Below are positions 4,342 to 39,505 of a stretch of 64,000 bases of DNA, in pieces (the first letter of the stretch is position 1; each line of letters opens with the position of its first letter). The DNA comes from an uncultured Candidatus Binatia bacterium (lineage in GTDB: Bacteria; Desulfobacterota; Binatia; UBA9968; JAJDTQ01). The notes beneath the pieces were generated by a model. That model searched no databases. It was not told the DNA's origin and worked only from the letters and a program-made list of their open reading frames with translations. A program made the position numbers and the translations under genes. The stretch lies in contig OZ219754.1 in the NCBI GenBank assembly GCA_964291295.2, positions 576,001 to 640,000 on the forward strand, read 5' to 3'.

Positions 4342-7300
4342 TCACCAGCGCAGCGCACCGCGCAGCATGAGGCTCTGCTCGCCGTTGGTCCAGGGCCGGC
4401 TTGTGCCCTCGATTCCCAGGGCGACCCCCGAGCCCAGGCGGTAGCGCGCACCCAGGCGCAGCGTGCGCTCGCCCGACTCCGCCAAGCTGAGCCCGGCATA
4501 AGGCGTCAGCAGCGCCGGGCCGGCGATGCCGATGCCGTGCCCCATCTCCGCCTCCAGACGGCTCTCCTCCGCCCCCGCCCCGCTGTCCGTGGCCGGACCG
4601 TAGTCGAACAACCCCCTCACACCGCTTGCCGTGCGACCGTGGGCCGGGCCGAAGCTCAGATAGCTCCCCCGACCGTCGGCCCCGGGGTCCAGGATCACCA
4701 GGGCGCTCACGCCCCATTCCTTCCGGTCCCGCTCGTGCACCGCCAGCATCCGGGCCCGCAACTCCGCGGTCAGACGGGCACCCGGGTCGCGCCAGATCAC
4801 GCCAGCCCCCACCTCCACCCCGCCGCCCTGCCCAACGTCGCCGTCGTCATGACGCACGCCCACTTCCAGCGCCGGCGTCAGCGTCGCATCGCCCCCGACC
4901 CGGTGCTCCCACGACCCCTCCACCATCAGCCGCAGTCGGCTCGCCTTCACCGTCAACTCCGTCAGACCGTCGCCGGCCTCCGTGCCCAGTTGGACCAGGG
5001 AGCCCTCCCCCTTCACCGCCACTCGCGTGGTGCCCCCTGCGATGATCTCCGGATCCTCCACCAGCACCCCGCGACCGCCCACCGCCCCAATCCACTGCGA
5101 CAGGTCCGCCGTGCGCGCCGCCGCTCCCGCCTCGGTGATCCGAACCTCGCCCCTCCCGTAACCCGCGCTGGCCCACAGCGTCGTGCCGTCCGCACGCAGC
5201 CACGCCAGATACGGATTCACCGACACCACCCGGCTCTCGTGCCTGCTTTTCGTCCGGTCGCCCCTCTTCGACACCGCATCCACCTTGCCCTTCGCATACG
5301 ACACCGCCGCCCCCGCCAGCAGGTCCGGGCGAACCCGAACGTCCGCCCCCAGATACCCCGACCACAGCCCGCCCTCCCAGGAAAGATCCCGCTCCGAACC
5401 CGACAGCGACCGCCACTCGCCCACTCCCCACAACGCCGGCGCCGCCGCCCCTCCCGCCCCCGAAGCACCCAGCGGCAGCGCGAAGGAGGCCCCGTCCAGC
5501 ATCTCCCGCAGGCCCGGTCCCCCTTGCCCCGGGTCTCCCAAGCCAACCCACTTCTCCTCCACCGCCTTCCCCGGCGCCGCTCCGAAGCGCACCGCACCGC
5601 CCACACCGCCATCCGACACCGCTTCGATCCGCCTCGTCACCGCCTCCAGCGTCTGCGACAGCGCCATCGCCGCCACCTGCGGCAGGATCGCACGGTTCAC
5701 CCGATCCGCCCCCTCCGACGAACCCTCTTCCAGAACTCCCTCCGCCTCCGCATCCACCCCCACCGCATAACCCTCCGCCGCGTTCAGCGTGATGCCGTAC
5801 GACTCCCGGCCTTCCACCTCTCCATCCGTGCGGGTGGGGATCATCACCAAACCCCTCCGGCTCGCCGTGGCGCCGAACACCGCATCCAACGAACGCGGCC
5901 CCAGTCCCCCCGGAAGATCCTCCGCATCGAAGCCACTGCCGTCGCGCGCCGCCAGCGTCAGACTCACCACCAGATTGCCCGTCAGCGCACGATCCGAGGT
6001 CACCGTGAGATGGATGTCCTCCCCCTCCGCCACCGCCGCCGGGTCCGTCTCCAGACTCAGCACCGGCGTCGTGTCCCTCACCCGCACCACCACCGAGGCG
6101 ATGCTCACCGAATCGTAGCCCCCGCCCCTCGCTCCGTGCGTCAGCGTCGCCCTGTCGTCCGCCGTGTCCGCATCACGAGCCGCGCTCACCGTCACCCGCT
6201 GCGGCTCGCTCCAGTTCGACACCGTGAAGCTCAGGCGCCGCGGCACCACCGTCACCTCCCCCGATGCCCCGCCCACCGTCACCGTCACCGTCCCCGTGGG
6301 CTCCGCACCCAGCACCACCGTGTAGCTCCCGGTGCCGCCCTCCTCCACCGTCAGCGCCGTCGGCGTCACCCGCACGCTCCCGCTCCCGCCCGCCGCGGGA
6401 GGCGTCGGCGTCGTCCCGGGAGGCGTGGAGGGCGGCGTGGCGCCCGTCGGCGTCGCGCTCACTGGCGCATCCGGGCCAGCGCCGTTGCCGGCCACGTTCA
6501 CCGCGCGCACCTCGAACTGATACGCGGTGCCGTTGGTCAGCCCGCTCACCTCGTAGCTGGTGGTGCTCGCTCCGGAGCCCCCAATGTCCGTCCACGCGCC
6601 CCAGGACTCGCCACCGGCCTTCTGCCGGTATTGCCACTTCGTGATGGTCGGATTGCCCGCGTCCGTCCAGCTCAGCGTCACCGAACCGTCCCCCGCCGCC
6701 GCCGCCAGGCCCGTCGGCTTCGCCGGCACCACGCCGCTCTCCGTCACGCTCACCACCACCGAGGCGATGCTCACCGAACCGTAGCCGCCCCCCGTCGCAC
6801 TGTGGGTCAGCGTCACGTCCGGGTCCGTCGTCGTGTCCCCGTCCTCCGCCGCGTTCACCGTCACCGTCTGCGGCATGTTCCAGTCCGAGGTGGTGAAGGT
6901 CAGCGGCGAGCCCGCCACCGTCACGTCCTCCGCCTCGCCCGCCACCGTGATCGTCACATCGCTCGACGGCACCGCGTTCAGCCGCATCGTGTAGCTGCCG
7001 CTGCTCCCCTCCGCCACCGTCAGCGCCGCCGTCGACACCGTCACCCCCGGCGCATCGGCCACCGTCACATCCACCGTGCCCGCATCCGGTATCGCATCCA
7101 CCGTCGCCCCCGTCAGCCGGAAGGCGTGGTTGATCGTCGCCGTGCCGTTCTTGACCCCGGTCACCGTCACATCCTGCGCCGTGTTGTAGTTGTCCGTGGT
7201 AAACGTCAGACTCGGCGGACTCACCGTCGCCGTCGCCGTGTCGTCGCTCGCGATCGACAGCGTTCCCGCATACGCCTTCTTCAGCGCCACCGTGTAGGTC

Positions 7301-10176
7301 GCCGTGGAACCGGGCTCAACCGTCACCGGGTCTCCGGTGATCATCAGCGCCGGCCTGTCATCATCATCATCGCTCAAGGTCACCGTGCGGATGTTGGACC
7401 AGAGGCCATTCCGATCATTGATCCCCCGTCCGCGAATCCTCACCTCCACCACCGCACCCTCCGGGTAGAAGGTGTCCAGCCCCCAGTCAACCGTCCGCGC
7501 CGAAAGTACCGCCGAAGCGCCAGTGCGAGAGGTTCCCCGCCAGTCCGTGCTCCCCCTGAGACGATGACCCATCTGCCAATGAAACCAGGTGGCTCCACTG
7601 GGGATAAGATCGCCGCTATGGGTCCACGTCAGTCGAACCCCCACAGCCAAGTTGGGCGCATTCGATGTCGCCCCGGTCAGCACCGGCGCCGCCAGCGCAT
7701 ACGGCGTCGCCGTCACCTCGTCCGACCACACCGACTGCACCCCAGGACTCACCGCCGCGAACAGCCGGAACGTGTATTCCGTCCCCCCCGTCAGCCCCGT
7801 CACCGTGGCGCTCGTCGTGCTCCCGCCCGTGACCGTCGTGGTGTCGCTCCAGCCGCCCGTGCTCTTGTACTGGTAGCCCCAGCTCGTTATCGGAATGCCC
7901 GACAGCGCGCTCCAGCTCAGGGTGACCGAACGGTCACCCCCGGCCGCCGTCAGCACCGGCTTGGGAACCGTATTCGTCGGCGTCGCCGTCACCTCGTCCG
8001 ACCACACCGACTGCACCCCCGGACTGACCGCGGCAAACAGCCGGAACGTGTATTCCGTCCCGATCATCAGCCCCGTCACCGTGGTGCTCGTCGCGCTGCC
8101 GTCCGAAATCGTCGTGGTCGCGCTCCAACTGCCGCCCCCGCTCTTGTACTGGTAGCCCCAGCTCGCCACCGTCACCCCCGACAGCGCGCTCCAGCTCAGG
8201 GTGACCCTGCCATAGCCCGCCGCCGCGGCGCTCAGCACCGGTTTGGGAACCGCCGGCGTCGCCCGCACCACCGCCGACGCGGCGCTGTTGCCGCCGCCGT
8301 TCTGCGCCCGGATGCGAAAACGGTACGCTCTGTCGTTGTCCAGACCCGTCACCGTGTGGTTCGTGGTGTCCGCGTCCGAACCGGAAATGTCGGTCCAGCT
8401 GCCCCAGGCGGCGCTCCCCTTCCTCTGCTGCACCTGATACCCCGTGATCGAATCGTCCTCCGGGTCCGTCCACGACAGCTCCACCTGACCGTTGCCCGCC
8501 TCCGCCGACAACCCCGTCGGCTTGGCGGGTTTGGCGGTGGTGCCATCATTGTCAACAATGGTGATGAGGATGGAGTCGCCCGACCAGCCCCCTGTGCTGG
8601 TGCTGGCCCGCATGGAGAAGTACTCATCCCCCTCCTCCAAGGTGTCCGGAAGAATGCCAACCGTCCTTGTGGCTGTTCTTTGCCCAGACTCTATGGGGAG
8701 GCTACTCGCGGAAGGGCCGCCGGGGAAGCAGATATCTGCTGTCGCGGGGGTCGGATTGCTGCAGTTGTCGGAACCTCCGTTATCATTGCCCACCAGGGTG
8801 CCGATACCCCCACCATAGCTGATGCTGACAAGAAACTCGTCCGGTGCATCCTCGCTGAGGGTAACGGTGAGGACTATGTTCTTCCTTTCCGTATCACCCT
8901 CCGTGATACGGTTATTGGGCTGATCGGTTGTGAGGGTGATGGTCTTGCTGCCAGTGGGGGTTGCCGTTGTCTCATTGGATACCGCACCGTTGCCGGAACT
9001 GTTCACCGCACGCACCTTGAACTTGTATTCCGTCCCGTTGCTCAAACCCGTCACCACATATCTGCCGTTATTGGGTTCACCTTCCGCCGAGTTGGAAATA
9101 TCGGTCCATGCGCCGTAGGCCGCCAACCCGGTCTTCTGCTGATACTGCCACTTGGTAATGGCCGGATTGGAATCCCTGACAGCCTCCCATATGAGCGTCA
9201 CCTTCCGATCCCCTGCATCCGAACCCAGTCCCGTTGTCGCGGCAGGAACGGCCGTGGTGGGGGGATCGTCGTCGTCGGTAATGGTCAGGGTGAGGCTGCC
9301 GTCGGTCCAGCCAGGATGCGCAGCCGAAGAAACGAGCTTGATGGTCTCGTTCGGCTCGTCCCGGGTGTCGGCGAGAATACGCACTTTCTTCGTGCCCATG
9401 GTCTCACCTTCGGCGATGGAGATGTTGGCCCCGTCCGGATGGCACCAGTCGGTGTCCGCCGGATTCAGCGGCGCCGTGCAGGGGTTTGCTCCCTTGCTGG
9501 AGCCTGTGGCCGTGCCGGGGGGACTGGCAGAAATAAGGGAGAGCGAAAAAATCCCCAAATCCGGATCCGCCGCCGGCGCCGCCTCGCCGAGCGTCACGGT
9601 GACCGTCACGTCCGTAAAGCCGGAGTTGCCCTCGGTGATCGAGGTCGATGTCGCCGACAGGGTGATCGTCTTGGTGGAAGTGGCCGCCGTTGGCGTCGCC
9701 GTGGCCCCGTTCGAGTACCCTCCCCCACTAGCGAAGACGGAAAAGTTAAGACCGGTACCTTCCGCCCTTGCCACCTGGAAGGTATAGGAGGTGCCGGGGG
9801 TCAACCCTGTGACCGTGTGGGTTCTGATGGTGGCGCCGCCCGGTATATCGATCCAGTCGCCGTAACCTCCTCCGGTGACCCCCTGTCGGTAAACCCAATA
9901 TCCAAATCCAGTGTTGCCGGTACGGGTCCAGTTGAGCGTGACACTGCCGACACCCGGGGTTGCCGTGAGCGCCGGCTTTTGCTGCGCCCGCGCGTCCTGC
10001 GGCGCGAGCACGGCGAGCGTCACCAGCGCGAAGAAGACGAGGGCGAATGCCGCCTTCAGGCGGCTGGCGGTTCTCCCGAGGGCGCCCACCGGACTAAGCC
10101 CCACAGCCGGTTTTCGGGGGGGGGGGGGGGGGGGCAATCTTACGCCCCAACCGAACCGCCGCGACAGGCCGCTCAT
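4342..10176 (-). CDS. large surface protein/adhesin: fibronectin type III and Calx-beta-like repeats with a C-terminal autotransporter-like beta-domain
   Basis: Signal-like segment ...ALVTLAVLAPQDARA/QQ; repeated FN3 signatures (VTLSW...YQY...VTGLTNGTxYxFxVRA); Thr/Ser-rich Ig-like modules; amphipathic beta-strand C-terminus ending in W. In-frame ATG at 10176. Confidence 0.8.
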   Translation of the reverse strand: MSGLSRRFGWGVRLPPPPPPRKPAVGLSPVGALGRTASRLKAAFALVFFALVTLAVLAPQDARAQQKPALTATPGVGSVTLNWTRTGNTGFGYWVYRQGVTGGGYGDWIDIPGGATIRTHTVTGLTPGTSYTFQVARAEGTGLNFSVFASGGGYSNGATATPTAATSTKTITLSATSTSITEGNSGFTDVTVTVTLGEAAPAADPDLGIFSLSLISASPPGTATGSSKGANPCTAPLNPADTDWCHPDGANISIAEGETMGTKKVRILADTRDEPNETIKLVSSAAHPGWTDGSLTLTITDDDDPPTTAVPAATTGLGSDAGDRKVTLIWEAVRDSNPAITKWQYQQKTGLAAYGAWTDISNSAEGEPNNGRYVVTGLSNGTEYKFKVRAVNSSGNGAVSNETTATPTGSKTITLTTDQPNNRITEGDTERKNIVLTVTLSEDAPDEFLVSISYGGGIGTLVGNDNGGSDNCSNPTPATADICFPGGPSASSLPIESGQRTATRTVGILPDTLEEGDEYFSMRASTSTGGWSGDSILITIVDNDGTTAKPAKPTGLSAEAGNGQVELSWTDPEDDSITGYQVQQRKGSAAWGSWTDISGSDADTTNHTVTGLDNDRAYRFRIRAQNGGGNSAASAVVRATPAVPKPVLSAAAAGYGRVTLSWSALSGVTVASWGYQYKSGGGSWSATTTISDGSATSTTVTGLMIGTEYTFRLFAAVSPGVQSVWSDEVTATPTNTVPKPVLTAAGGDRSVTLSWSALSGIPITSWGYQYKSTGGWSDTTTVTGGSTTSATVTGLTGGTEYTFRLFAAVSPGVQSVWSDEVTATPYALAAPVLTGATSNAPNLAVGVRLTWTHSGDLIPSGATWFHWQMGHRLRGSTDWRGTSRTGASAVLSARTVDWGLDTFYPEGAVVEVRIRGRGINDRNGLWSNIRTVTLSDDDDDRPALMITGDPVTVEPGSTATYTVALKKAYAGTLSIASDDTATATVSPPSLTFTTDNYNTAQDVTVTGVKNGTATINHAFRLTGATVDAIPDAGTVDVTVADAPGVTVSTAALTVAEGSSGSYTMRLNAVPSSDVTITVAGEAEDVTVAGSPLTFTTSDWNMPQTVTVNAAEDGDTTTDPDVTLTHSATGGGYGSVSIASVVVSVTESGVVPAKPTGLAAAAGDGSVTLSWTDAGNPTITKWQYRQKAGGESWGAWTDIGGSGASTTSYEVSGLTNGTAYQFEVRAVNVAGNGAGPDAPVSATPTGATPPSTPPGTTPTPPAAGGSGSVRVTPTALTVEEGGTGSYTVVLGAEPTGTVTVTVGGASGEVTVVPRRLSFTVSNWSEPQRVTVSAARDADTADDRATLTHGARGGGYDSVSIASVVVRVRDTTPVLSLETDPAAVAEGEDIHLTVTSDRALTGNLVVSLTLAARDGSGFDAEDLPGGLGPRSLDAVFGATASRRGLVMIPTRTDGEVEGRESYGITLNAAEGYAVGVDAEAEGVLEEGSSEGADRVNRAILPQVAAMALSQTLEAVTRRIEAVSDGGVGGAVRFGAAPGKAVEEKWVGLGDPGQGGPGLREMLDGASFALPLGASGAGGAAAPALWGVGEWRSLSGSERDLSWEGGLWSGYLGADVRVRPDLLAGAAVSYAKGKVDAVSKRGDRTKSRHESRVVSVNPYLAWLRADGTTLWASAGYGRGEVRITEAGAAARTADLSQWIGAVGGRGVLVEDPEIIAGGTTRVAVKGEGSLVQLGTEAGDGLTELTVKASRLRLMVEGSWEHRVGGDATLTPALEVGVRHDDGDVGQGGGVEVGAGVIWRDPGARLTAELRARMLAVHERDRKEWGVSALVILDPGADGRGSYLSFGPAHGRTASGVRGLFDYGPATDSGAGAEESRLEAEMGHGIGIAGPALLTPYAGLSLAESGERTLRLGARYRLGSGVALGIEGTSRPWTNGEQSLMLRGALRW
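7702..8252. repeat. tandem duplication of an FN3-coding module (276-nt offset)
   Basis: cggcgtcgccgtcacctcgtccgaccacaccgactgcac starts at both 7702 and 7978; GTEYTFRLFAAVSPGVQSVWSDEVTATP occurs twice in the protein. Confidence 0.9.
10116..10134. repeat. G19 homopolymer (C19 on the coding strand) at the 5' end of the autotransporter gene
   Basis: Directly visible: ttttc-G19-caatc; encodes the poly-Pro run. Confidence 0.9.
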
Positions 10177-10226
10177 CGCAGCCGACACAGCGCCACCGCC
10201 TTCAAGCTGTCACCCATCTTCGTCAT
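10173..10226 (-). other. short upstream ORF (17 aa) overlapping the adhesin start
   Basis: GAGGTGAG RBS precedes ATG 10226 (MTKMGDSLKAVALCRLR); its TGA overlaps ATG 10176 as ATGA. Confidence 0.4.
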
Positions 10227-22008: not shown

Positions 22009-22104
22009 GCGATCCATCCCGTTCCCCGGAGCGTTCCCCGGAGCATCCCGGCTCGGACCCGTCGAAAGAACCGGAGGGCCGGAGCAGCCTGATTCCACGG
22101 CGCG

Positions 22105-22135
22105 ATTATACAGGGATCCGCAAGATGCTTGTCAA
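22105..22135 (-). promoter_or_regulatory. putative sigma70 promoter of the Rieske gene (19-bp spacer)
   Basis: Minus strand TTGACA (22135-22130) and TATAAT (22110-22105), both perfect consensus. Confidence 0.55.
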
Positions 22136-22174
22136 CGTTCGCGCGTCAACCCTGCCTGTCAGCCAGCCAAGGGC

Positions 22175-22204
22175 GGCATGGGTTCAGGTCTGCCGGTGGC
22201 CGTC
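22175..22204. repeat. att-like direct repeat: displaced copy of the sthA 3' end
   Basis: ggcatgggttcaggtctgccggtggccgtc matches 38051-38080 at 28/30. Confidence 0.85.
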
Positions 22205-22405
22205 AACACAAGGCCGCCACGCTGTTTGAGTATGGCGCGCACGGTTGCCGCAGCCTCACGCCGCGTTCCCGTGTTGGCTTTGCACTCGATCGTTCCCGAC
22301 TCCCCGACGGCAACGATTGCGGCATTCTGCTCAGGCGTCACCGGCCATAATCGTCACAGAGCTTGGCTTCCGAAACCGCTGAACGATCTGCAAGGCACGC
22401 TACCT

Positions 22406-24313
22406 CTATGAGGGTTTCGCTTCCGAAGGCGCATTGGTCAGCGAAGAATCCGCGGGGCATACGATCTGCTCGAGAATACGGATTACTTCCCCGAAGTGGC
22501 GGAAGTCCTCGACCGTTCCGTGGCTCCTCAACCAGTCGCAGAGGTTCCTCTTCTCGTCGTCATTGACACTCCAGGATTCCGGAACACACTCTTCCTTTCC
22601 CCTTACAGTTTTGGTGTGCGATGAAGCGATATCGATAAACCTTGGGTGTTGCTGTTGAGCCCTCTCCAACGTTGCCTTGCCAAAAAGATTCTCGACTCCT
22701 TTATTTATGGGGTGTTCTCCGACGCGGGGAATCTTCCTCTTGTGAATGTTGCCTTTGTCGTCGTCGTCGAGTGGGCTTTCAGGATCATGCAGCAAAACTA
22801 CTGTCTTCTCAGACAGTCCGGGGATGCCTGCAAGCTTTTCAAGATTCGTCCAGATCGTCTTGAGTCTTCCATTACCCCCAGCAGCCTGCACTTCGAACTT
22901 CTCCAGGACGTCATTTTTCCCTAGCAACTCCGCCGCCCGCCGCAAGTAATCCCGGTCCGTTTTGCCTTCGACAAATAGAATCGGGCGTTGTGCCTTTTCG
23001 ACCTGCGCCCGGATTGCCTTCGAGAACTCGGTAGTAACCTTGAATGCTTGAAACGCCTGCCCGAACTCATCAAAGTCTTCTGGAGCAATGCGAGAGCCGT
23101 TCGGCAGGTCGTAGACCTCGAAATCGTCTTCTCCGAATACCTTTGCCATTCCGAGGACGACCAGTGGCGAGTGCGTGGTCATTACAAACTGAATTTGGGG
23201 AAACATATGCACCAAACTCGGGAGTATGTCATGCTGATGCCGTGAATGGAGGTGAAGGTCTATTTCATCAATTACTACGATCCCTTTCACATCTTTGGTT
23301 GCCGCGAAAGACACATTGCGTGCCTCTCTTAAGTCATAGTCTCTTAGTATGGAAAGAAACAGCGCCAATAGAGCCATCTCTCCACTGGACAACTGGAATA
23401 GATTCGGCACCACCGTCTGCTGATCGGACTCCAGGGTTATGATGCGATTATGTCTTCCGCCAATGCCAAACCGAAGATTTTTCTCTATGGCCAATTCTCG
23501 TATGATCATCTGCAAGATGTTGCGCGCCAATTGGTACACATTAGTAGCATCACCACTATATCCCATAAAAACGGGAAGATTCAAATTTCTGGATCGGGTA
23601 CTACCCGGTGTAGAAGCAAGAATAGAGAATGACGGGGATTGTACTTCGAAAGCTGCACGATCATAGGCAACGTCGTACAGCCAGTCGTGGATGTCTCGAA
23701 GTGGTGAATGAGCGATTAGCCGGCGTCGAGTCTCACCTTTTCGGTGGACTCCCTGCTTATAGTGCGGCTTGGCGCGCAGATTTTCCTGATTCAGCCAAGC
23801 CGGTTCTTCGGCGCGATTGGACGGGAAGTAGAGCAGACAGTTAGCCGATACCATCTCCTTTATGAGTGCAGCCTGCGACCGCTCCAGTATATTGGTCTCG
23901 ATATGGTCCATCTCGTCACTGTCAAATTTTCCCGTCCAAGCATCAGAACCGAGTCCGTCCACGCCCATCGGTGGCTCGGTATACTCATGCTTGGGTTTTG
24001 TCAGGCGAAGTTCCCGAACGAAGTGCCCGGACTGGAAGTCACACCGGGCGTAGTAGTACTCGGCGCCGACCGAGACGTAGAAGCCGCTGCGTAGCTTGAA
24101 TACTTTTCCGACATCCACTTCACTTGAGTCTTGGTAAGCCGTGTCCTTGGCCATGAGCATGGCGTTGACTATGTGGGAAAGAACTATGGTTTTGCCGGAC
24201 CCGTTCTCGCCGACCAGTAAAACAGGCTTTGGGCGTGCGTCATCGAACGGGAAGCGGATGTCCAGATCCCGGAGCGGCCCGTAGTTCGTCAGTTGAAGTC
24301 GCGTCAGGTACAT
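22406..24313 (-). CDS. ABC-type (AAA_15/AAA_21-like) ATPase fused to a C-terminal TOPRIM-like domain; putative defence protein
   Basis: Walker A VGENGSGKT, signature QLSSGE, Walker B VIDEIDLHLH, TTHSP; then ILFVEGKTD, GG loop, LLHD and GVENLF. Confidence 0.8.
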   Translation of the reverse strand: MYLTRLQLTNYGPLRDLDIRFPFDDARPKPVLLVGENGSGKTIVLSHIVNAMLMAKDTAYQDSSEVDVGKVFKLRSGFYVSVGAEYYYARCDFQSGHFVRELRLTKPKHEYTEPPMGVDGLGSDAWTGKFDSDEMDHIETNILERSQAALIKEMVSANCLLYFPSNRAEEPAWLNQENLRAKPHYKQGVHRKGETRRRLIAHSPLRDIHDWLYDVAYDRAAFEVQSPSFSILASTPGSTRSRNLNLPVFMGYSGDATNVYQLARNILQMIIRELAIEKNLRFGIGGRHNRIITLESDQQTVVPNLFQLSSGEMALLALFLSILRDYDLREARNVSFAATKDVKGIVVIDEIDLHLHSRHQHDILPSLVHMFPQIQFVMTTHSPLVVLGMAKVFGEDDFEVYDLPNGSRIAPEDFDEFGQAFQAFKVTTEFSKAIRAQVEKAQRPILFVEGKTDRDYLRRAAELLGKNDVLEKFEVQAAGGNGRLKTIWTNLEKLAGIPGLSEKTVVLLHDPESPLDDDDKGNIHKRKIPRVGEHPINKGVENLFGKATLERAQQQHPRFIDIASSHTKTVRGKEECVPESWSVNDDEKRNLCDWLRSHGTVEDFRHFGEVIRILEQIVCPADSSLTNAPSEAKPS

Positions 24314-24345
24314 GCGCTTTTTCTACCGGGTGGTCAGTGTCCCGG

Positions 24346-27251
24346 TCAATCATCCTTGATGAGGCCGAGTTCGCGAAGGGGCTCGAGCACGCCGTTCTCC
24401 AACTTGGCCTTGTCGTATCCTTCCGGGGCGGTTGCCGATGCGTTGATGGAAATGGTGCCTGTCATCTCTGCGAGATTGGCCAATGCGTTCCATGCGTCGT
24501 ATACCACGTTCCGGTCAGCCACGAAGGAGACCGTGATCTCACGGCTGCCGGTGGGGTAGTCCCCGCCCGATCCTCCTTCGGGAGAAGAGCCCTCGCCGGA
24601 ATCGCCGCTCTCACCATGTTGCCCGGTGCCCTCTCCTTTTCCCTCTCCTTCTCCGGTGCCGCCGGTCGTCTCGTTGTCGGGTGCCGGCGCCTGTTCGGGA
24701 ATAGCCGCGGGGGCAATCAGAAAGCCAGCGTCCAGGTCGATTTCGTCGTCCGCCACACTGCGGTCGAATGCGACACGGTTCCGGTCAATGAGGTAGCGCC
24801 CGTCGTCTCCGAGTTGCGGCCGGCCGGTGGCGTAGCCGAACAGACGGCTCTCCACTCCACGAGCGACCGCCTTGCGCACGGCGTCGGACGAGAGCAGACG
24901 GGGGAAGCCCAGGAACTCGTAGAACCCTTTCAACACTTGGGCCGTGGTGATTCCGGCAACGTAGCGTCCCGGTTCTCCGAGCCTGAACAGTTCGGCGATC
25001 TTGCCGGGAGCGAGCGTTACGAATACCCGCTTCTGGACCTTGGTGAGCAGCTCCATCAGGCGCTGCTGGATGAGGGCGCATTTCTTGTCGTCAAGGGTCG
25101 TCTGGAGCGGGCGGCCGCCGATGCGGACGGTGTCCAGCGTCAAACCTCCGTTGCCGGATACCGGGAGCCGGACTTCGCCGTAGAGCTTGAGCAGGGCCGA
25201 CTCGGTTGCCGTCTTCTCGGTGGCGAGGCGCTCCCGAAGCTGGTTTCGCTGCGCATCCGTGAGATTGTGCTCGCGCCACTTGCCCTGTATTCGCTCGACC
25301 GCCAGGAGGTAGCGAACGCCGCGGCGCAGAATCTCCACCTGATCGGCTGATGGGACGGCCAGCCCCAGGCCGTTGCGGAACTCGCGCTGGCGGTTCCCGT
25401 ACTGCTCGCAAATCGCCAGCGCGGTGCGATTCTGCGTCGCGGGCGCTTGCGTCGCGAACTCAAGCGGCAGGTACGCCAGGAGAAACTGCGGTTCCCGGTC
25501 CGGCACGTCGCCCGGTTTGGCGGGCCAGACGATGGCGGGCTGTCCGGCCAGCCGCTCCTCGATCATCTGCCGGACACGAGCCATGATGTTGCCGTCGTCG
25601 CGCCCGACCGTTTCGGCCTCCTGCTCGACCAGCAGCGTGACATTGGGATCCTTCTTGAAGCAGTAGCGCACGCCGTCGAAGTGCAGATAGACGCACTGCT
25701 CCCTGAGTTCCTTGAGGCACGCCTGAATGGTGGTGGTATCAAGGTCCGGCCCGATGCACGCCGCCAGCAGGTCGGGCTCGCCGATCCCCGGTGGAAGGAG
25801 TTCACCCGGGTCGCCCTCCCCACGCCGCAGACCACCGAACGAGTAGAGCAGCATCGCGGTGGCAAGGCGCATGGCCGGTTGCTTGCCGGACTCCGTCGTC
25901 ACTTCGTGCGCGCGCCGTTCGTCGATGCGGCGAGCCCGTGCGTTTGCGCCCGTGAAGTCCTGCTCCAGGCAGGCCTGGAAGTCCTCGCGCTGGCCGACCT
26001 CCTTGAAGAAAGCGAGGCGGACGGCATCATCATGGATGGGAACGTCGCCCGGACCGAGCAGCGGTCGGGAACCGCCTGCCCGGTGGGCGGCGCGCAGGCA
26101 CGAAGCAAGGAAGCGCAGTGCCCCGCGGGTGCGCTGGAATTCGGGGATGGCGGCCCAGCGCTCGCGCATCAGATCGATCAACGCCGGATGGAAGGGGTAG
26201 GACGCCCTGATTCGCCTGCGCAGGGCCTGTCCATCTTCTTCGGCCTGCCGCCGCTCTCCCTGGCCGTGTGCGCTGGCGCGGCGCATCTTCGTGAACACCT
26301 GTACATGGGCATCCACCGTCGCTGCGGCCGCACCCGCGTCGGGCGTGCCGGCGAGCAGCCGGCGCTGGATCACGTTCAGTATCTCGTTGCCCTCGACCGG
26401 CTCCCGGCGCTGGCCCTTGCGTGAGGCAAGGTGCTCGACGGTTTGCAGCAGGCCCGTGTATTCAAGGGATTCGCGTTTGCTGGACTGAAGGGAAAAGACG
26501 AGCGCCGCGTTGTCCACGCTCCCCACCGCCACCGTCAACCGCTGAAGGAACGACAGCGTCTCGTCCCGGAGGGTGGTCTGTTCGATGCGGATTCCGCCGG
26601 CGCTGATGAGGTATTGCAGCAGTTCGTCGAGCAGGATCAGACTCGGTCCGCCCTTGAGCAGTTCGACGAGCGCATCGCCGCCCGGTGCGACCCGGGCTTC
26701 GTCCTGTGCGCGCACCAGGTCGTAGCCGTCCCGCCCTCCGAGGGACCATGCGACCCAGCCCCAGATCGTTCTTGCGGAGATGTCCCCGGCCGGGGACTGC
26801 TTGCCATTTGTCGGATCGAAGAACTGCCCGTCCACCACGGCCACCCGTACCCCTCCAGGCCGCGGCAGGCCGGCCGCCTCCGGCAGCGCTTCAAGCGCGG
26901 CGCGCGACCGGGCAGCGTACAGCAGGGCGGCAAGGGTGTGGGACTTGCCGCCGCCGAAGGGTGTCTGAAGCCTGAGAACCCGATTCCCTTCGGCTCCGGC
27001 AAGGCGGCCAAGCACATCTTCGAGAAGAGACTTGAGGCCGCTCGTCAGGTATGACGCGGCAAAGAAACTGTCGGCATCCCGGTAGACCGGGGGGACTCGC
27101 CTCAATTCGGCTTCCGGCCGTCCGAGATCCCTGGCGATCAGGTAGTCGGACAGGGGACCCAGGTCCAGTGCGAAGATGTCTTCGGAGAAGTCGTCGGCAA
27201 GCACGTCGGGATGCAGGGCAACGCACTGTAGCCAGGGGCGGCAATCGGGCT

Positions 27252-27255
<4 letters not shown>
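24346..27255 (-). CDS. DUF499 family AAA+ ATPase
   Basis: LRLQTPFGGGKSHTL, LILLDE, SYPFHP, FQRTRGALR; ATGA overlap with the methylase stop. Confidence 0.9.
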
Positions 27256-30074
<2,819 letters not shown>

Positions 30075-30078
<4 letters not shown>

Positions 30079-32024
30079 GACACGCTCCCTGCTTTCAGTG
30101 CTTCATTGGAGCGGGTGCCCATCAAGCCCATTTCCCCAAGAAAGCGGGACGGTGCTTTTGACCATCCCTTGTACTGCTGTGCCCTTGACAGGATCAACCG
30201 CGTCTTCGTGCGGGTGATGGCGACGAAGCAACTGCGGCGCTCCTCCTCGATGGCCGCACTGTCGTTGCCTTTCCCGACGCTGTACCAGGAGGGGAAGACC
30301 TCTTCCGCGAGACCGATCAGGTAGACCCTGTCGAACTCCAGCCCCTTGGCCGCGTGAACCGTGCTCAACGAAACCGCGTTCGGTGCCGGTGGCGGTTCCT
30401 TGGAGCGCAATTCCATTTCCTGGAGGAACTGGTCGAGCGGAATGGCGCCCCGAGCCTGCCTTATCTCCTTTTCGATGTGCCGCCATGCGCTCAGGTCGTC
30501 TTTCAGGTCGCCGCCCGCATCTTCGGTCTCAAAGTGCTTCTTGACCTCTGCCACGGTCCCGGCCAAGCGTACGTTGCCGGACGCGAGGCCCGCCATCGCT
30601 TCGACCACTGACGGCAACGCCGAAGGTGTTGCCTGCCTGACAGCGTCGAACCAGGCGGCCAGCAGCGTGATCCGGTTCGCCTCCGAACGTGCGATCACTT
30701 CCTCGACCTCCACGGGAACTCCGGCAAAGTCCTCGAATGTTGCCGCCAGCACAGCCATGTTGCGCCGGTCGAGCGGTCGATTGATTTGCTTCAGGCAGGC
30801 GACAAGCCAGCGCAGTTGCGGCGACACGAAGTCGTCGCGCCGCGCCAGAAGCGCCGCAGGTACGTTCAACGCCTCCAGCGTGGCCCGGACAGGCTCCAGC
30901 AGCGCGCGACTGCGCGCCAGCACCACGGTTCCCCGGCGCTGTACCACATCCAGACCGGCAATCTCGGCGGCGATGCACGAAGCTTCGCCTCCATCATCGG
31001 AGAAAACCTTGCATTCGATTTCGTCCTCGCCTTGGCGGCGCGGCACGGCAGGCTCCACTGGCGCCTTGGAAACGTCTCTCCGGACGTTGTAGACGACAAG
31101 CCGGTTGGCAACATCCACGACGCCGGGAGGGCAGCGGAAGTTGTCCGTAAGCTGTATGACCTCGCACCTGAAGTCGTCCACCAGGCTTCGAATACGGCGC
31201 ACATTCGCACCGTTCCACTCGTAAAGGGTCTGGTCGTCATCGGCCACCGCGAACAATCGGTGGAAACTGCCGCCCGCCATCCGCCTGAGCAGTTCGTATT
31301 GAGGGCCGTTGGCGTCCTGAAACTCGTCGATGAGCCAGTACCGGTACATCGTCCGGCAATGTCGGGCCAGTACCGGATGACCCAGGAGTTCGAAGGCCAG
31401 GCGAATCAGCGAATTGAAGTCGAGGGCGTTGGCTCGAACCAGCTCTTCTTCGTACAGCCGGTAGGAAAGCCCGATGCGATCCACCCCCAGGCGATCCACA
31501 AGGCCCGGCGCCAGACGAGGATTGCTCCGCAAATACGACGCGGCCCGCTCCGGGCCTACCAGGCGCTTCTTCAGTTCGTCGATGGCGGGCAACAGCCCAT
31601 CATCGTCACACTCGAAACAGGCCCCGCGGTGCCGCAAGGCATCTGCCAGCACCGCCTGCCGGTCGGCGGTCCGGGAATAGATCGCAAAGTTCGGCTTGAT
31701 GCCACAGTGGCTGCCATGCTGGCGCAGAAGTTGGGCGCAGAATCCGTGGAAAGTGTCGATATCCGCGCGTTCCTCAGCGCCGGGAACCAGCGCGGCAATC
31801 CGTGTTCTCATTTCATGGGCCGCCTTGTTGGTAAAGGTCAGTCCGAGAACGCGGAAGCGCTGGTCCGGAGAAGTCTCCAGCAATCGGGCGGCGCGGCAGG
31901 TCAGCACCCTTGTCTTGCCGGACCCGGGACCGGCCAGCACCAGCAGGGGGCCGTCATCCCACTCGACGGCCTTGCGCTGCATGGCCGTCAATTCCCGCAG
32001 TGTGCTTTCGAGAGGGCTCGCCAT
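30075..32024 (-). CDS. UvrD/PcrA-like helicase, Gabija GajB-like
   Basis: LAGPGSGKTRVL, LTFTNKAA, IDEFQD, STVHAAKGLEF, EEERRSCFVAITR; TGATG overlap with the upstream OLD nuclease. Confidence 0.88.
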
Positions 32025-33940
32025 CACGTCAATCCCGGCAGTTGGTTGATTGCAGCACGGAACGCCTCGGGCGCGCGCTGCGCCAGATCCTTGTCGTCAC
32101 GAATTCGCGCCGCGAGTTCTGCCGCATAGGCCGTCTTGTTCCCGCGCAAGCAGGCAACAAGGCCATCCTTGTCCATTTCATGGGCGTCGTGGACGCTCAA
32201 TGTCGCCAACACTTCCCGCAACTCCGGCTCGAGTCCGTCTGCAACAAGCTGTGCCTCAAGGTCACCGTTCGGATGTTTGCGACAACGCGTGGCCACCTCG
32301 TCCTTGGTGAAGCCACGTCCTTCGATGTTCCGAACGAACCCCTCGCCTGCCTCGTCACCATCGAACACGGCAAGCCAGGGAATGTCCAGTGCTCGGGCCA
32401 GCGCAACGAAGGTGGCCGGATTGCCGTTGTTCTGAGCGTCGATGACGGAAACACCGTACCGGTCAAGGTCGTAGTCCAATGCATGCGCGATGGCATGAAC
32501 GAGCAGATGGTCGGCCTGCCCTTCGACAATCAGCCATCGTTCCGCGAAGAAAATCTCCCCGCGCATGCGCCGGGCGAAGGTTTCCAGCGCCAGCAACTCG
32601 CCATCGGCCACATGCAGGGAAGAGCGCTCCTTCAGGGCGCGAAGCCGCGATTCGAGATCGGAACGCCTCTCGTGTTGCGTGCAGCATCGGAGCAGCGCCC
32701 GATAATGACTCTCTTTCAGCGAGCCATGAACCATCAGCTTTCCTGATGCGCTTTCGTAGGACAACAACCCTCCTGCCTCATTCACCACCGCATCAAGGCC
32801 ATCCACATGCGGAAATGACTCGGAGAAGCTGGCCGGGAGCGACCGCACTTCGGTTCCCTTCGCGGTCAGGCGCACCAGGCGCAGATCGCGAAACGGAACG
32901 AGCTGAACAAAGTACGGCGAGTGGGTCGTCACGATCTTCTGACCCGGCAGGGCTTCGACTTCATGCCAAAGCGTACGCACGGCTTGCGGGTGCAGATGTG
33001 TTTCCGGCTCTTCCAGAGCCAGCACCGGCTCGCTGTCCGGCTCGTACAGCTCAGCGAGCAGATGATCCACGAAAGCCTGGAACAGGAAGATGACCGAAAG
33101 GCTCTGAATGCCTTGACCCTGGCGCCTCAGTGGGAGCCACGGCAGATCCGGTTCGTTGCGCAGGATGATTTCGGCCCGCGAAAGCAGATCCCAGGTCTTG
33201 AGCGGCACCATCCGCAGATCAAGGCCGCCCTCCCGATCCCGGGCCGCGACGCGGGTTGCGCCCGACAACGTCTTGGCCATCTCCGCCAGACGCGGATCGG
33301 CCTTCAGGAGACGTCGGTTGAGCAGATCCAGAACCCGCAATGCGCGGGCCTCAAGTGCCGGTGGAATGTTCAGGTCCTTGAGCAGCCGCGTCCAGAACTG
33401 GGATGATCGCGTCGAAAACTCATCCCCCACATCGCGCAATGCCCCAAGGTAGAATACCGGCAGGTAACGCCAGAACCGTTCGAGATTGAGTCGGCGTCCG
33501 CCGAAACCGACCAAGGGCTCGCCATCAGAGGCAAGGAACTCCCAAGTCGGTTCGAAGCTGTCCGTGTCCTCATTCCAGCTGCACCGCGTTCGCAGGGAAA
33601 CGAAGCGCCGGCCGGTGGCCGTATCCAACTGCACGATGTTGCCGAGGTCTGCGGTGATGTCATCGGACCATTCACCGGGTTCTCGCTCCTCGGATTTCAA
33701 CTCGATGCGGACGCCGCTCGAAGTCCTGGGATCGGCCGCCTCGCCGGCCATATGGATGTCGTACTCGCTGAAACCGGTGCCGCGCTGGCCCCAGCGGCGC
33801 GTGAGGGCAATGCGCAGTGCGTCGAGAATTGCCGTTTTGCCAGCGTTGTTCGGGCCGACAAATACGGTCGTATCGCCGAGATCGACGGTCAGATGCCGGA
33901 TCGACCGGAAGTTCTCGATCTCGATGCGGCTTATGCGCAT
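32024..33940 (-). CDS. OLD-family ATP-dependent endonuclease (ATPase + TOPRIM), Gabija GajA-like
   Basis: MRISRIEIENFRSI, VGPNNAGKT, GQGIQSL, LEEPETHLHP, TTHSP, IVEGQAD, FDGD. Start reassigned to ATG 33940. Confidence 0.9.
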   Translation of the reverse strand: MRISRIEIENFRSIRHLTVDLGDTTVFVGPNNAGKTAILDALRIALTRRWGQRGTGFSEYDIHMAGEAADPRTSSGVRIELKSEEREPGEWSDDITADLGNIVQLDTATGRRFVSLRTRCSWNEDTDSFEPTWEFLASDGEPLVGFGGRRLNLERFWRYLPVFYLGALRDVGDEFSTRSSQFWTRLLKDLNIPPALEARALRVLDLLNRRLLKADPRLAEMAKTLSGATRVAARDREGGLDLRMVPLKTWDLLSRAEIILRNEPDLPWLPLRRQGQGIQSLSVIFLFQAFVDHLLAELYEPDSEPVLALEEPETHLHPQAVRTLWHEVEALPGQKIVTTHSPYFVQLVPFRDLRLVRLTAKGTEVRSLPASFSESFPHVDGLDAVVNEAGGLLSYESASGKLMVHGSLKESHYRALLRCCTQHERRSDLESRLRALKERSSLHVADGELLALETFARRMRGEIFFAERWLIVEGQADHLLVHAIAHALDYDLDRYGVSVIDAQNNGNPATFVALARALDIPWLAVFDGDEAGEGFVRNIEGRGFTKDEVATRCRKHPNGDLEAQLVADGLEPELREVLATLSVHDAHEMDKDGLVACLRGNKTAYAAELAARIRDDKDLAQRAPEAFRAAINQLPGLT

Positions 33941-33965
33941 GGGCGGCCTTCCCCGGTGCGCGCGG

Positions 33966-37514
<3,549 letters not shown>

Positions 37515-37579
37515 TCGATGACCCCTCCCTGCTGTTGCGATTCGCCGGGCCACGTGAGTGGTCGCGGGGGTATCGCTGC

Positions 37580-37752
37580 TGCCGCTGCGGACCCAGTCGT
37601 CAACCTGCGAGAGTCCGGAAGCCAAACAGGCATCCAACGCGGCACGCCGGCAAACCCCGCGTGTCGACCCGGCGGTACACCGTGTCCCTGGAAACCTGCA
37701 GGAGAGCGGCCGCTTCGGGGATGCCGAAACGAGGTTCGCCAGATATGTTCAT
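37580..37752 (-). pseudogene. frameshifted excisionase-like helix-turn-helix (HTH_17-type) gene
   Basis: IPEAAALLQVSRDTVYRRVDTRGLPACRVGCLFGFR continues as LSQVDDWVRSG if one base near 37614 is removed. Confidence 0.75.
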
Positions 37753-38050
37753 TGCGCCGACATGACTTGATCGAACAGGCTGATTCGCACCGAAGTCTGC
37801 CAAACGACACCCACACGGTCAATTCCGGGATGCTTCGACAAGGGCGTGCGGACTTGGCGACCGGGGCGCTCCCCGGAACATCCGCGCAAGTGTGCCGGCT
37901 GAACACGGGACGCGGCGTACGCATCCGCATGACCGTCCACAGCAAGGGTGCGGCAATGTCGCCGGGGTTTGGCCCATCGAAGCGTGCGACGGCCTGTCGA
38001 GGAAGCGTGCCAGTACGGATGGCCTTCGTTCTCGACCGCTCGATCACCAT

Positions 38051-38080
38051 GGCATGGGTTCAGGCCCGCCGGTGGCCGTC
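38051..38080. repeat. att-like direct repeat overlapping the sthA stop codon
   Basis: ggcatgggttcaggcccgccggtggccgtc; pairs with 22175-22204. Confidence 0.85.
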
Positions 38081-39505
38081 GATGAACGTCCTGGCTTGGC
38101 TCACCAGGGCGAGCTTGTTGGCGGCGTGAAAGGCGGCGGTCTTGTAGCACTCGGCCAGTGTCGGATAGTTGAAGACCGTCTTGAGAAAGTAGTCCAGCCC
38201 GCCGCCCAGTCCCAGCACGGCCTGCCCCACGTGAATCAGTTCGGTGGCGCCGCTGCCGATGCAATGGCAGCCGAGGAGACGACCGTCGTCACGGTGGAAC
38301 AGCATCTTGAACATGCCCGAGTCGTCACCGAGAATGATGCCGCGGGAGATCTCCTTGTACCGCGCGACGCCGGTCTCGTAGGGAATCTTCCGACTCGTCA
38401 GCTCCTCTTCGGTGGCGCCCACCGAAGACAGTTCGGGGATGGCATAGATGCCGATGGGACAGTGATGGCCGATGGGCTCCGCGTCCACACCGAACATGCG
38501 GCAGGCCGCCAGCCGGCCCTGCTCCGAGGAGGTGGCAGCCAGGGCGGGGAAGCCGATGAGATCGCCGGCTGCCCAGATGTTCTCCACGGGCGTCCGGAAG
38601 TTTTCGTCGACCTGGAGGCGCCCGCGCTCGTCCGCCTCAAGACCCACCGCCTCCAGGTTCAGCGTGGACGACGCTCCCTGCCGTCCCGAGGAGATGAGGA
38701 TCACGTCGGCCACCAGGAACTTGCCCGAGGCCAGCTTCAGCAGGCCCTGACGGCGGGGGGTCTCGACGATCTCCACCTGCTCCACCGCGTCACCGCAACG
38801 AAACGTCACGTCGGCCTTGCGCAGCTGGTGCAGCAACTCGTCGATGATCTCGTGGTCCATGAACTCCAGCGGCCGCTCGCGCGCGTCGATGAGCGTGACG
38901 CGCACCCCCAGCGCCGCGAACATGGAGGCGTACTCGATGCCGATGACGCCCGCGCCCACCACCGCCATGGTTTGCGGCAACTCCTCGATGGCGAGAACGT
39001 CGTCCGACGTGATCACGGTGCGACCGTCGGGAGCCATGCCCTCAAGCGCTCCGGGTCGTGTGCCCACCGCCACCAGCACCTTGTCCGTAGTGATGACGCG
39101 CCGCTCACCCTCGGCCACCAGTCGGATCGTATGGGGGTCGACGAACTCCCCGCGCGCGTGGAGAATCTTGACGTCATTGCGGGTGAGGGCATCGTCCACC
39201 ACCGCGATCTCCCGCTGGATCACCCGGTGCACGTGGCCCACCAACTGCTGCATGGTGGGCCGGCTCCTGCCGTTGGTGGAGAACGGGTCCATCACCTCCA
39301 GCCCGGGCCTCGAATAGACCCGGCGCACCGCCTCGCGAAAGGTCTTGGACGGGATGGTGCCGTTGTCAACGCAGATACCGCCGACAAAGCGCTGCTTCTC
39401 CACCACCGCCACCCGCTTTCCCACCTTGGCCGCCTGGATGGCCGCGCGCTGGCCCGCGGGTCCGCTGCCGATGCAAACCAGGTCATAGTCGTAACTCGAC
39501 ATCAT
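38060..39505 (-). CDS. sthA: soluble (Si-specific) NAD(P)+ transhydrogenase
   Basis: YDLVCIGSGPAG, GTIPSKTFREA with no redox CxxxxC pair, GIYAIPE, VFNYPTLAECYKTAA. Confidence 0.92.
   Translation of the reverse strand: MMSSYDYDLVCIGSGPAGQRAAIQAAKVGKRVAVVEKQRFVGGICVDNGTIPSKTFREAVRRVYSRPGLEVMDPFSTNGRSRPTMQQLVGHVHRVIQREIAVVDDALTRNDVKILHARGEFVDPHTIRLVAEGERRVITTDKVLVAVGTRPGALEGMAPDGRTVITSDDVLAIEELPQTMAVVGAGVIGIEYASMFAALGVRVTLIDARERPLEFMDHEIIDELLHQLRKADVTFRCGDAVEQVEIVETPRRQGLLKLASGKFLVADVILISSGRQGASSTLNLEAVGLEADERGRLQVDENFRTPVENIWAAGDLIGFPALAATSSEQGRLAACRMFGVDAEPIGHHCPIGIYAIPELSSVGATEEELTSRKIPYETGVARYKEISRGIILGDDSGMFKMLFHRDDGRLLGCHCIGSGATELIHVGQAVLGLGGGLDYFLKTVFNYPTLAECYKTAAFHAANKLALVSQARTFIDGHRRA

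Follow-up and report, generated by a model that had tools for sequence, protein, structure and literature searches.

Hma is a three-gene defence system named by Payne et al. 2021 (PMC8565338), who counted 1,638 instances in 26 phyla. A later study reported that 931 of 1,485 Hma systems contain embedded genes, arranged in 376 distinct cassettes, with 22.8% of the embedded genes belonging to known systems, and considered that anti-restriction proteins may be trapped by an embedded PARIS or Gabija (Payne et al. 2024, 10.1101/2024.01.29.577857). Here we describe an Hma locus that holds a Gabija pair, gajA-gajB, between hmaA and hmaB. It lies in 64,000 nucleotides (nt) of DNA from an uncultured Candidatus Binatia bacterium (GenBank assembly GCA_964291295.2, contig OZ219754.1, positions 576,001 to 640,000); this whole stretch is called the window, and positions refer to it unless another locus is named. 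In our judgement the locus is probably one defence operon on an Hma scaffold, in which Gabija was captured once, the two systems would work as parallel layers, and the methylase gene hmaB could be switched.

Several properties of the described systems are needed for the comparison. Halomonas HmaA alone protects against T4 by way of its NOV_C nickase, no protective modification by HmaB was seen, 66.5% of Hma systems contain insertions in a region called a hotspot, and 14.7% of hmaA loci are without hmaB (Liu et al. 2024, PMC11232893). In the accessible text of a 2026 article (NAR 2026, PMC12839542), Hma is renamed the Type-1 DUF499-centred BREX-related system, HmaB is likened to Type-3 BREX methylases, DUF3780 is assigned to Type-2 only, and OLD-ABC/Toprim modules within BREX-type loci are presented as a back-up layer. 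An OLD protein adjoining a UvrD-like helicase is a class-2 OLD system, that is, Gabija, and the Bacillus cereus Gabija forms a 4:4 GajA:GajB complex with nucleotide-inhibited DNA nicking (review, PMC10568477). Two other systems provide precedents: pglX of the Streptomyces coelicolor Pgl system is phase-variable through an 8-G tract (PMC4365076, citing Sumby and Smith 2003), and PrrC, in the EcoprrI type I restriction-modification locus, is an embedded nuclease held inactive by its carrier (per Payne et al. 2024).

The locus in the window consists of six genes, co-oriented on the minus strand (22406-37514). The preliminary description, made from the letters and open reading frames (ORFs) alone, had listed three overlapping junctions and two short gaps among them, and a re-reading of the coordinates confirms all five: gajA/gajB overlap in TGATG (32022-32026), gajB/hmaB in GTGA (30075-30078) and hmaB/hmaC in ATGA (27252-27255, where the hmaC start overlaps the hmaB stop), with 25 nt between hmaA and gajA and 32 nt between hmaC and the sixth gene. 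PADLOC and profile searches, which that description had proposed, recognise HmaA, GajA, GajB, HmaB and HmaC. In NCBIfam, all eight window proteins or protein pieces scanned fall under the curated cut-offs of that collection.

The first gene, hmaA (33966..37514, starting with the ATG at 37514), encodes an SNF2 helicase with a C-terminal NOV_C nuclease of the PD-(D/E)XK type. It matches positions 40-1146 of the 1176-position PADLOC HmaA profile with 607 bits, and Pfam finds SNF2-rel_dom, Helicase_C and NOV_C (56 bits); the Walker A motif GAGKT, the DEAH box and the nuclease residues D1075 and E1099-x-K1101 are the same in all 18 relatives aligned. The second gene, gajA (32024..33940), encodes a class-2 OLD family nuclease, an ABC ATPase joined to a Toprim domain, and matches PADLOC GajA (PDLC00062) over its full length with 810 bits. 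Its Pfam domains are AAA_15 (99 bits), DUF2813 and OLD-like_TOPRIM (59 bits), and its Walker A, EEPE Walker B and Toprim motifs (E473-G, D527-G-D529) are likewise without variation in 18 of 18 relatives. The adjoining gajB (30075..32027) encodes a UvrD/PcrA-like superfamily 1 helicase (PADLOC GajB PDLC00114, 715 bits; UvrD-helicase, 199 bits) whose Walker A and DEFQD motifs do not vary among 16 relatives. An ATPase-Toprim nuclease next to a helicase resembling UvrD, PcrA or Rep is the class-2 OLD arrangement, so the Gabija architecture that had been recognised by eye is borne out by the GajA and GajB models.

The fourth gene, hmaB (27252..30078), encodes a DUF1156 N6-type DNA methylase and is out of frame as assembled. 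Its first 65 codons, upstream of the frame break, match DUF1156 (50.7 bits), the other 833 match PADLOC HmaB (289 bits), and the motifs FAGGG and DPPY are present. It is followed by hmaC (24346..27255), encoding a DUF499 ATPase (PADLOC HmaC, 314 bits; Pfam DUF499, 107 bits). A NOV_C-type SNF2 helicase, a DUF1156 methylase and a DUF499 ATPase thus lie on one strand in the order A-B-C, and the outer genes are the Hma system, alias the Type-1 BREX-related system. The Type-2 BREX-related system, the form with DUF3780, was considered and rejected, as the helicase carries NOV_C and not PLD; the PADLOC PLD_Helicase model gives it 99 bits, against 607 for HmaA, and the NCBIfam anti-phage models for DUF1156, DUF499 and PLD stay far under their cut-offs on the window proteins. 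The preliminary description had noted that a small DUF3780 gene was not to be seen. There is no space for an extra gene among the packed ORFs of the operon, and the absence is expected, because the DUF3780 gene defines the Type-2 relatives with an HKD helicase, not Type-1/Hma.

To place this arrangement among its relatives, species-representative genomes were scanned with an HmaB alignment, which gave 57 loci from many phyla (numbered with the prefix L), and the window proteins were mapped onto them by tblastn. HmaB relatives are plentiful, with at least 7,235 matches among the 8,000 candidates scored, the best 120 being 68-82% identical. The assessable set comprises 55 loci; L057 is left out as not Hma, and L010 because its upstream part is missing. 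The slot between hmaA and hmaB holds gajA-gajB in 21 of the 55, remnants of Gabija in four (L024, L036, L039 and L041) and nothing (<100 nt) in 17; three more have a gap of 321-552 nt, and ten have other cargo, including a kinase with an Aga-like protein, PDC-S03, DUF932 and a ClpP-like protease. Among the 21 loci with the pair, gajA is in two pieces in L046, and L017, L028 and L046 have a truncated or broken hmaA. Two further observations concern the same region: L016 has a 2.3-kb insert in hmaA (6229-8495) whose sole sizeable ORF is antisense and has collagen-repeat matches, and in L017 a PIN-domain gene lies upstream of gajA (4301-4705).

The history of the pair can be read from gene trees. 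In the HmaA tree (42 rows, each with a single match covering at least 85% of the query; L049 is excluded for a stop), the Gabija state requires at least 9-10 changes, and empty or otherwise filled loci are nested beside Gabija-bearing ones. The GajA and GajB trees mirror the HmaA clades. Pairwise distances correlate between HmaA and GajA (r=0.71, n=17), GajA and HmaC (r=0.73, n=19), GajA and GajB (r=0.83, n=21) and HmaA and HmaC (r=0.91, n=39), and in each case 0 of 2000 permutations reach r. The methylase behaves differently: HmaA-HmaB distances give r=0.20 (n=38), a value reached by 114 of 2000 permutations, and GajA-HmaB distances r=-0.01 (n=18), reached by 1049 of 2000.

Relatives of the pair outside Hma were taken from a plasmid collection, where GajA is matched best (65% and 50% identity) in two ATPase-helicase pairs that stand alone. 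Neither has Hma nearby; conjugation and partition genes surround the one, and IS66 and integrase genes adjoin the other. With these two plasmid pairs as the stand-alone comparison set, all embedded GajA sequences (21 rows) fall on one side of a branch with support 100/99 and all embedded GajB sequences (24 rows) on one side of a branch with support 100/100, the stand-alone pairs being opposite in both trees. Remnants of the pair occur and empty loci are nested among Gabija-bearing ones, which argues that Gabija was lost repeatedly. The simplest history would be a single capture, probably in the ancestor of this Hma clade, followed by co-inheritance across phyla with repeated loss or replacement; the pair would have travelled with the scaffold and would not be an obligate fusion to it. 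A cargo of single origin that co-diverges with its carrier and has its own relay ORF, as described below, appears not to have been reported before.

These results also bear on the idea that the slot is a hotspot and nothing else, with Gabija one interchangeable insert that has no special relation to this Hma clade. The cargo in the slots is indeed diverse, and the published frequencies of embedded genes, cassettes and insertions given above fit such a picture. We nevertheless regard it as highly improbable, because GajA distances track the scaffold and the embedded copies form one clade; moreover, Gabija or its remnants occupy 25 of the 55 slots in the clade.

The preliminary description had gone further and proposed that the five genes might be one layered system rather than chance neighbours, suggesting that homologous loci be surveyed for the gene order and that gene trees be compared. 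The order hmaA-gajA-gajB-hmaB-hmaC does recur in 21 of the 55 loci, in many phyla, and the GajA and GajB clades repeat those of HmaA with correlated distances. Recurrence, the single clade and co-divergence uphold the part of the claim that the genes are not chance neighbours. The other part, one obligate layered system, is unsupported, because the slot is empty or filled with unrelated cargo in close Hma relatives; unrelated cargo in the slot was the outcome that the description had itself named as contrary to the claim, and it occurs in 10 of the 55 loci, beside the 17 empty slots, the four with remnants, and the relatives of the pair that live alone on plasmids.

How the pair is joined to its carrier can be followed at the level of start and stop codons. 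In ten empty loci inspected (of the 17), the stop of hmaA and the start of hmaB share an ATGA or GTGA. The Gabija-bearing loci keep ATGA or GTGA at the hmaA stop, where it opens a short ORF. In the window, this relay ORF (33931..33969, minus strand) has 12 codons, from the ATGA that overlaps the hmaA stop to a stop 7 nt inside gajA; it has 9-15 codons in 9 of 22 loci. A stop in the relay frame at +7..+9 of gajA is present in 20 of 22 embedded loci (L043 and L046 are the exceptions) and in neither of the two stand-alone pairs, against a background of 1.8% per codon for such out-of-frame stops. The relay stop is reached by four different codon solutions, and gajA codon 3 is the rare ATA in 13 of 15 cases with Ile, as compared with 4.8% of Ile codons elsewhere in these genes.

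Since the gajA/gajB, gajB/hmaB and hmaB/hmaC overlaps measure 1-4 nt, the five genes may form an unbroken termination-reinitiation chain in which the relay ORF bridges the 25-nt gap. The claim that the pair is translationally coupled into the methylase system is accordingly kept here in a predicted form: the chain of overlaps and the relay ORF are conserved, and the coupling would follow from them. In two loci, L012 (~3700-3916) and L017 (~5390-5830), a 5' fragment of hmaB lies just upstream of gajA, in the relay frame. Such fragments are best read as the footprint of recombination between Hma loci, and the capture itself would have taken place at the start/stop overlap of hmaA and hmaB.

A coupling device specific to the embedded copies (20 of 22, against 0 of 2 stand-alone pairs) raises the question of whether Gabija and Hma are one integrated machine, in which Gabija would depend on or monitor Hma and might, for example, be kept inactive by the Hma proteins until a phage inhibitor blocks these, by analogy with PrrC. 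Besides the device, this reading has in its favour that a pair of single origin was kept over a long divergence, that co-divergence with HmaA and HmaC is much stronger for GajA (0.71 and 0.73) than what the methylase shows (0.20 for HmaA-HmaB and -0.01 for GajA-HmaB), and that PrrC offers a precedent, taken up by Payne et al. 2024. It is opposed by the 17 of 55 Hma loci that manage without cargo and the ten with unrelated cargo, by the remnants, which speak of repeated loss, and by the related pairs that exist alone on plasmids. We consider an integrated machine distinctly unlikely. In the explanation that we prefer, the pair would be a self-sufficient class-2 OLD system situated between hmaA and hmaB, and Hma and Gabija would act as parallel layers under common expression: Hma as a methylation-based restriction-like system, with hmaA a predicted SNF2 helicase fused to a PD-(D/E)XK nickase, hmaB a predicted DUF1156 amino-methyltransferase and hmaC a DUF499 ATPase, and Gabija as a nucleotide-sensing nuclease-helicase complex and possible back-up.

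The methylase stands apart from the other genes in a second respect. The closest relative of the window among the loci is L052, with 83% DNA identity from hmaA to gajB and 85% over hmaC, but nothing is alignable across hmaB (27241-30037 in the window). L050-L055 have a second HmaB type that is 43-45% identical. As judged from this comparison, hmaB is the part that is exchanged, moving as a cassette whose limits are the ends of the gene. In L034, hmaB is interrupted by a DDE transposase gene (8558-10000, minus strand).

The frame break in the window copy of hmaB is caused by a 27-nt poly-C run after the DUF1156 domain (29882..29908, minus strand; G on the plus strand), at a place where relatives read A-P-A-P. 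Lengths of 26 or 29 C keep hmaB in frame; with 27 C a stop is met at 29863-29865, and out-of-frame lengths in general stop at codon 67-71. As in contingency genes, a long simple repeat therefore lies inside an ORF and its length sets the frame. Similar runs are present in relatives. The related loci, 1.2 Mb in all, contain six G/C runs of at least 9 nt, three of which fall in hmaB, each with a frameshift: 19 C in L018 at the same place as in the window (site 1), 17 G in L001 at the FAGGG motif, and 31 G in L037 at a third site. The longest G/C run in hmaB is 4-7 nt in 52 of 56 genes and 17, 19, 27 and 31 nt in the other four, with no gene of the 56 having a longest run of 8-16 nt. In the other operon genes of these loci (149 copies of hmaA, hmaC, gajA and gajB) no such run exceeds 7 nt.

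Apart from the run, the four run-bearing hmaB ORFs are open for 617-875 codons, and both flanks of each run continue hmaB in register. A short-protein search with the 71-residue N-terminal piece from the window found a further allele, in protein P0242, which ends in eight prolines at site 1 and then goes out of frame; it is on the same contig as P0002, the closest relative of the C-terminal piece among the best 120 listed. Site-1 alleles thus differ among genomes (27 nt, 19 nt and at least eight prolines) and persist across 18-27% protein divergence. The runs are independent of Gabija, as the slot is empty in L018 and has other cargo in L037. The HmaB tree groups the window with L018 and L001 (supports 84 and 94) and places L037 far from them; site 1 may have been inherited and kept, or may have arisen repeatedly.

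The long runs suggest phase variation, as in pglX of Pgl. By slipped-strand mispairing, the poly-C run would turn hmaB on and off, in parallel with the pglX G tract, and hmaC would probably switch as well, through lost coupling; hmaA and Gabija, being upstream of the switch, would stay expressed. A literature search on Hma and on DUF1156 methylases found no report of a phase-variable run. Two features appear to be undescribed parts of the system: the exchange of the hmaB cassette and, above all, the long homopolymers that recur in this gene.

Several facts weigh against the switch and the wider explanation that includes it. According to the HmaB tree, the runs may have originated in as few as two lineages, and their end branches are long (0.20-0.42, with L018 at 0.42, against a median of 0.15). 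As assembled, each of the five alleles with a run is out of frame, for which the chance is (2/3)^5 = 0.13, and an in-frame allele was not seen: among the best 120 relatives listed, none has six or more prolines in the first 200 residues, a stretch that includes the site. Exact run lengths in assemblies are unreliable, and each genome provides one consensus. Breaks in the 5' part of hmaB occur on long contigs with no run at all (P0244, P0246, P0247, P0250, P0255 and P0260), so plain loss of hmaB also happens. Against the role assumed for hmaB stands the finding that HmaA alone protects, with no protective HmaB modification seen (Liu et al. 2024, PMC11232893). With regard to Gabija, co-divergence and predicted coupling would fit functional integration as well as mere linkage.

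Many of these facts can be taken together to mean that hmaB is a dying gene, or the run a sequencing artefact, with the homopolymer a slippage by-product of tolerated loss. The five out-of-frame alleles and the run-free 5' frameshifts agree with this, as do the protection by HmaA alone in E. coli and the 14.7% of hmaA loci without hmaB (PMC11232893); in addition, the small gene upstream of hmaA is also degenerate in the window (see below), and L018 has its long branch of 0.42. A decaying gene does not, however, readily account for four ORFs that are otherwise open for 617-875 codons with run flanks in register, for run lengths that are either 4-7 or 17-31 nt, or for long runs in 4 of 56 hmaB genes and 0 of 149 other operon genes. 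The site-1 alleles are also kept across 18-27% protein divergence, and comparable runs are found in a surface-protein gene of the same lineage. We therefore rate decay or artefact as unlikely, though by no means far-fetched.

If hmaB is instead under a switch, as we prefer to think, the findings on the methylase can be joined in one proposal: Hma would be phase-variable through hmaB switches of 17-31 nt that arose on three or more occasions, at three sites, with one site kept across deep divergence, and HmaB would be the specificity-determining, fast-evolving part of the system. The argument for HmaB as a specificity factor under diversifying selection is that hypermutable runs and cassette swapping are both confined to hmaB, and the cassette-like replacement between loci that are otherwise 83-85% identical, together with the switches, would mark it as such. 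We offer this joint proposal tentatively, as plausible rather than probable. If it is true, a cell line could flip its methylation-dependent layer and its methylome while the nuclease layer remains constant, all being translated as one relay.

Other homopolymers and broken methylase genes were seen along the way. The N-terminal pieces of P0246 and P0250 end exactly at the FAGGG motif, the run site in L001, with no long glycine run, and this G-rich site may be generally slippage-prone. In the window, a 19-nt G run (10116-10134, plus strand; poly-C on the coding strand) is located in the gene 4342..10188 (minus strand), 54-72 nt after the start of this 1948-residue fibronectin-III-repeat (fn3) gene and just ahead of a sequence resembling a signal peptide. 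A homologous giant fn3 surface-protein gene in L052 carries a run of 27 nt in the matching position (22319-22345), and the run in the giant gene looks like that of a second contingency locus in the same lineage. The plasmid collection has 213 matches to HmaB, all <60% identical. Two leads on plasmids were rejected as examples of a run: in two assemblies of a Rhodococcus opacus PD630 plasmid, the DUF1156 gene differs by a duplication of ~275 nt, and the split DUF1156 genes on Geminocystis and Synechocystis plasmids contain insertions.

The preliminary description had set the limit of its region at 37752; that position is the ATG of a small gene and not the start of the helicase gene, which is at 37514. 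The small gene (37512..37752, minus strand) encodes a helix-turn-helix (HTH) protein of excisionase/MerR-like, MAD1-like type. Its first 50 codons match HTH_17 with 32 bits, and the NCBIfam excisionase domain (32.2 bits) and MAD1 (29.6 bits) models match below cut-off. In the window the gene is degenerate, with two frame changes and a stop at 37600-37602; between its two shifts, this copy is in frame with hmaA. In L006, L008, L016, L042 and L049 the gene is intact (78-80 residues) and its end overlaps the hmaA start.

At the other end of the operon, the sixth gene (22406..24313, minus strand) had been described as an ATPase-TOPRIM fusion. The ATPase half of that description holds: Pfam finds AAA_21 and AAA_15, and the top PADLOC match is PtuA (110 bits), so that the gene encodes a PtuA-like ABC ATPase with a C-terminal domain of ~190 residues. 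In a profile search of the PDB, the solved retron and Septu PtuA structures match it with at most 90 bits, over the ATPase part only. The Toprim half was not confirmed, and the domain is a putative Toprim at most: Pfam and NCBIfam have no match on the C-terminal 236 residues and PADLOC gives only weak matches to the Toprim regions of several models (E 0.002-0.03); when the protein was compared with the GajA family by hhalign, the Walker A region alone was aligned. The protein belongs to a family of 1777 relatives of ~620-640 residues, in which E449-G450, D453, D510 and E541, in the last ~190 residues, are invariant. Septu was rejected as an identity for this gene, since there is no PtuB HNH partner; the next gene downstream, for a Rieske oxygenase, belongs to a core-like flank. 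For HEC-04, the ATPase-Toprim fusion of Payne et al. 2024, no model is among its 25 best PADLOC matches.

The composition of the sixth gene (G+C 53.5%, with a G+C content at third codon positions, GC3, of 0.59) is lower than that of its neighbours; GC3 is 0.76-0.79 in the other five genes, 0.85-0.91 in the genes directly flanking the island, and 0.70-0.91 over the whole window. This points to a separate acquisition, apparently into a cargo site after hmaC. In the surveyed loci, that site has a gene for an OLD-like ATPase-Toprim protein of 653-691 residues in 12 loci (L004, L006, L008, L009, L016, L019, L025, L028, L031, L042, L049 and L054), both with and without embedded Gabija; by tblastn the sixth gene is unmatched at these 12 sites, and its sole match among the loci is in L052. 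IetA with IetS is present after hmaC in six loci, and in four more, where IetA only was scanned for, IetA is found; elsewhere the site has ThsB, PD-Lambda-5 or Schlafen-type genes. The hmaB-hmaC junction also takes cargo in some loci: a long prokaryotic Argonaute (pAgo) in three, otherwise PDC-S05 or a CBASS cyclase. The pAgo proteins have ~1,120-1,190 residues and PADLOC scores of >1,500 bits (L012, 12829-16293; L015, 12414-15974; L036, 12673-16041). With cargo between hmaA and hmaB, between hmaB and hmaC, and after hmaC, the Hma scaffold therefore has three cargo sites, and the sixth gene of the window is in the third.

The surroundings of the island are ordinary chromosomal genes, namely thiG, thiE and genes for an isochorismatase, an SDR protein and the Rieske oxygenase on the left, and sthA and mgtE on the right. 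No integrase was found inside or near the island. A tRNA-Thr gene lies 1.6 kb to its left, beyond the Rieske gene, and Rfam models detect nothing besides this tRNA over 20-40 kb. A scan of 21900-38300 for promoters and terminators gave counts at the level of shuffled sequence (2 vs 2.6 and 14 vs 13.6). The longest exact repeat between the island flanks is a 14-nt direct repeat on the plus strand (left copy 22175..22188, right copy 38051-38064), with a probability of ~0.007 by chance (4^-14 x search space). Its two copies bracket the whole island, and the right one overlaps the 3' end of sthA.

The nesting itself is one more example of a described pattern. As an arrangement it is not new, and neither is the layered reading with OLD as back-up, because Hma embedding and the OLD back-up layer are both in print. 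What the locus adds is that a carrier can incorporate its cargo system as a part that is stably passed on, even with a coupling device of its own, and such stable capture sharpens the question of whether embedded systems are passengers or partners. If the switch is real, Hma would join Pgl as a phase-variable BREX-type defence, and the uncultured lineages with this system should then be heterogeneous in methylome and defence.

Compared with published Hma systems, the locus has the same three genes on one strand, the same hmaA-hmaB insertion site in a hotspot slot, and embedded genes in the same orientation. It differs in its cargo: the text of Payne et al. and Liu et al., as far as accessible, lists Septu, PARIS, Ppl, GmrSD-like genes and HEC candidates, with Gabija possible only, whereas here Gabija dominates the cargo of a whole clade, as a pair of single origin that co-diverges with its carrier. 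The Type-1 system of NAR 2026 is the same system by another name, and a primary restriction-like module with OLD/Toprim back-up is stated there; the accessible text of that article makes no mention of methylase phase variation, translational chaining or the history of a single cargo. The pair is very distant from Bacillus cereus Gabija, with a GajA match of 63 N-terminal residues and 24.6 bits, and the window GajB is nearer PcrA (220 bits, its best solved relative) than B. cereus GajB (59 bits). In common with pglX of Pgl (Type-2 BREX), hmaB is a methyltransferase gene with an internal G/C homopolymer that determines the frame by its length; in pglX this is a tract of 8 G, while the hmaB runs are of 17-31 nt, occur at three sites and are known from assembled sequence. 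Finally, as in PrrC/EcoprrI, an ABC-ATPase nuclease is nested among the genes of a methylation-based system; PrrC is controlled by its carrier, and the window pair, known from its sequence, is its counterpart in arrangement.

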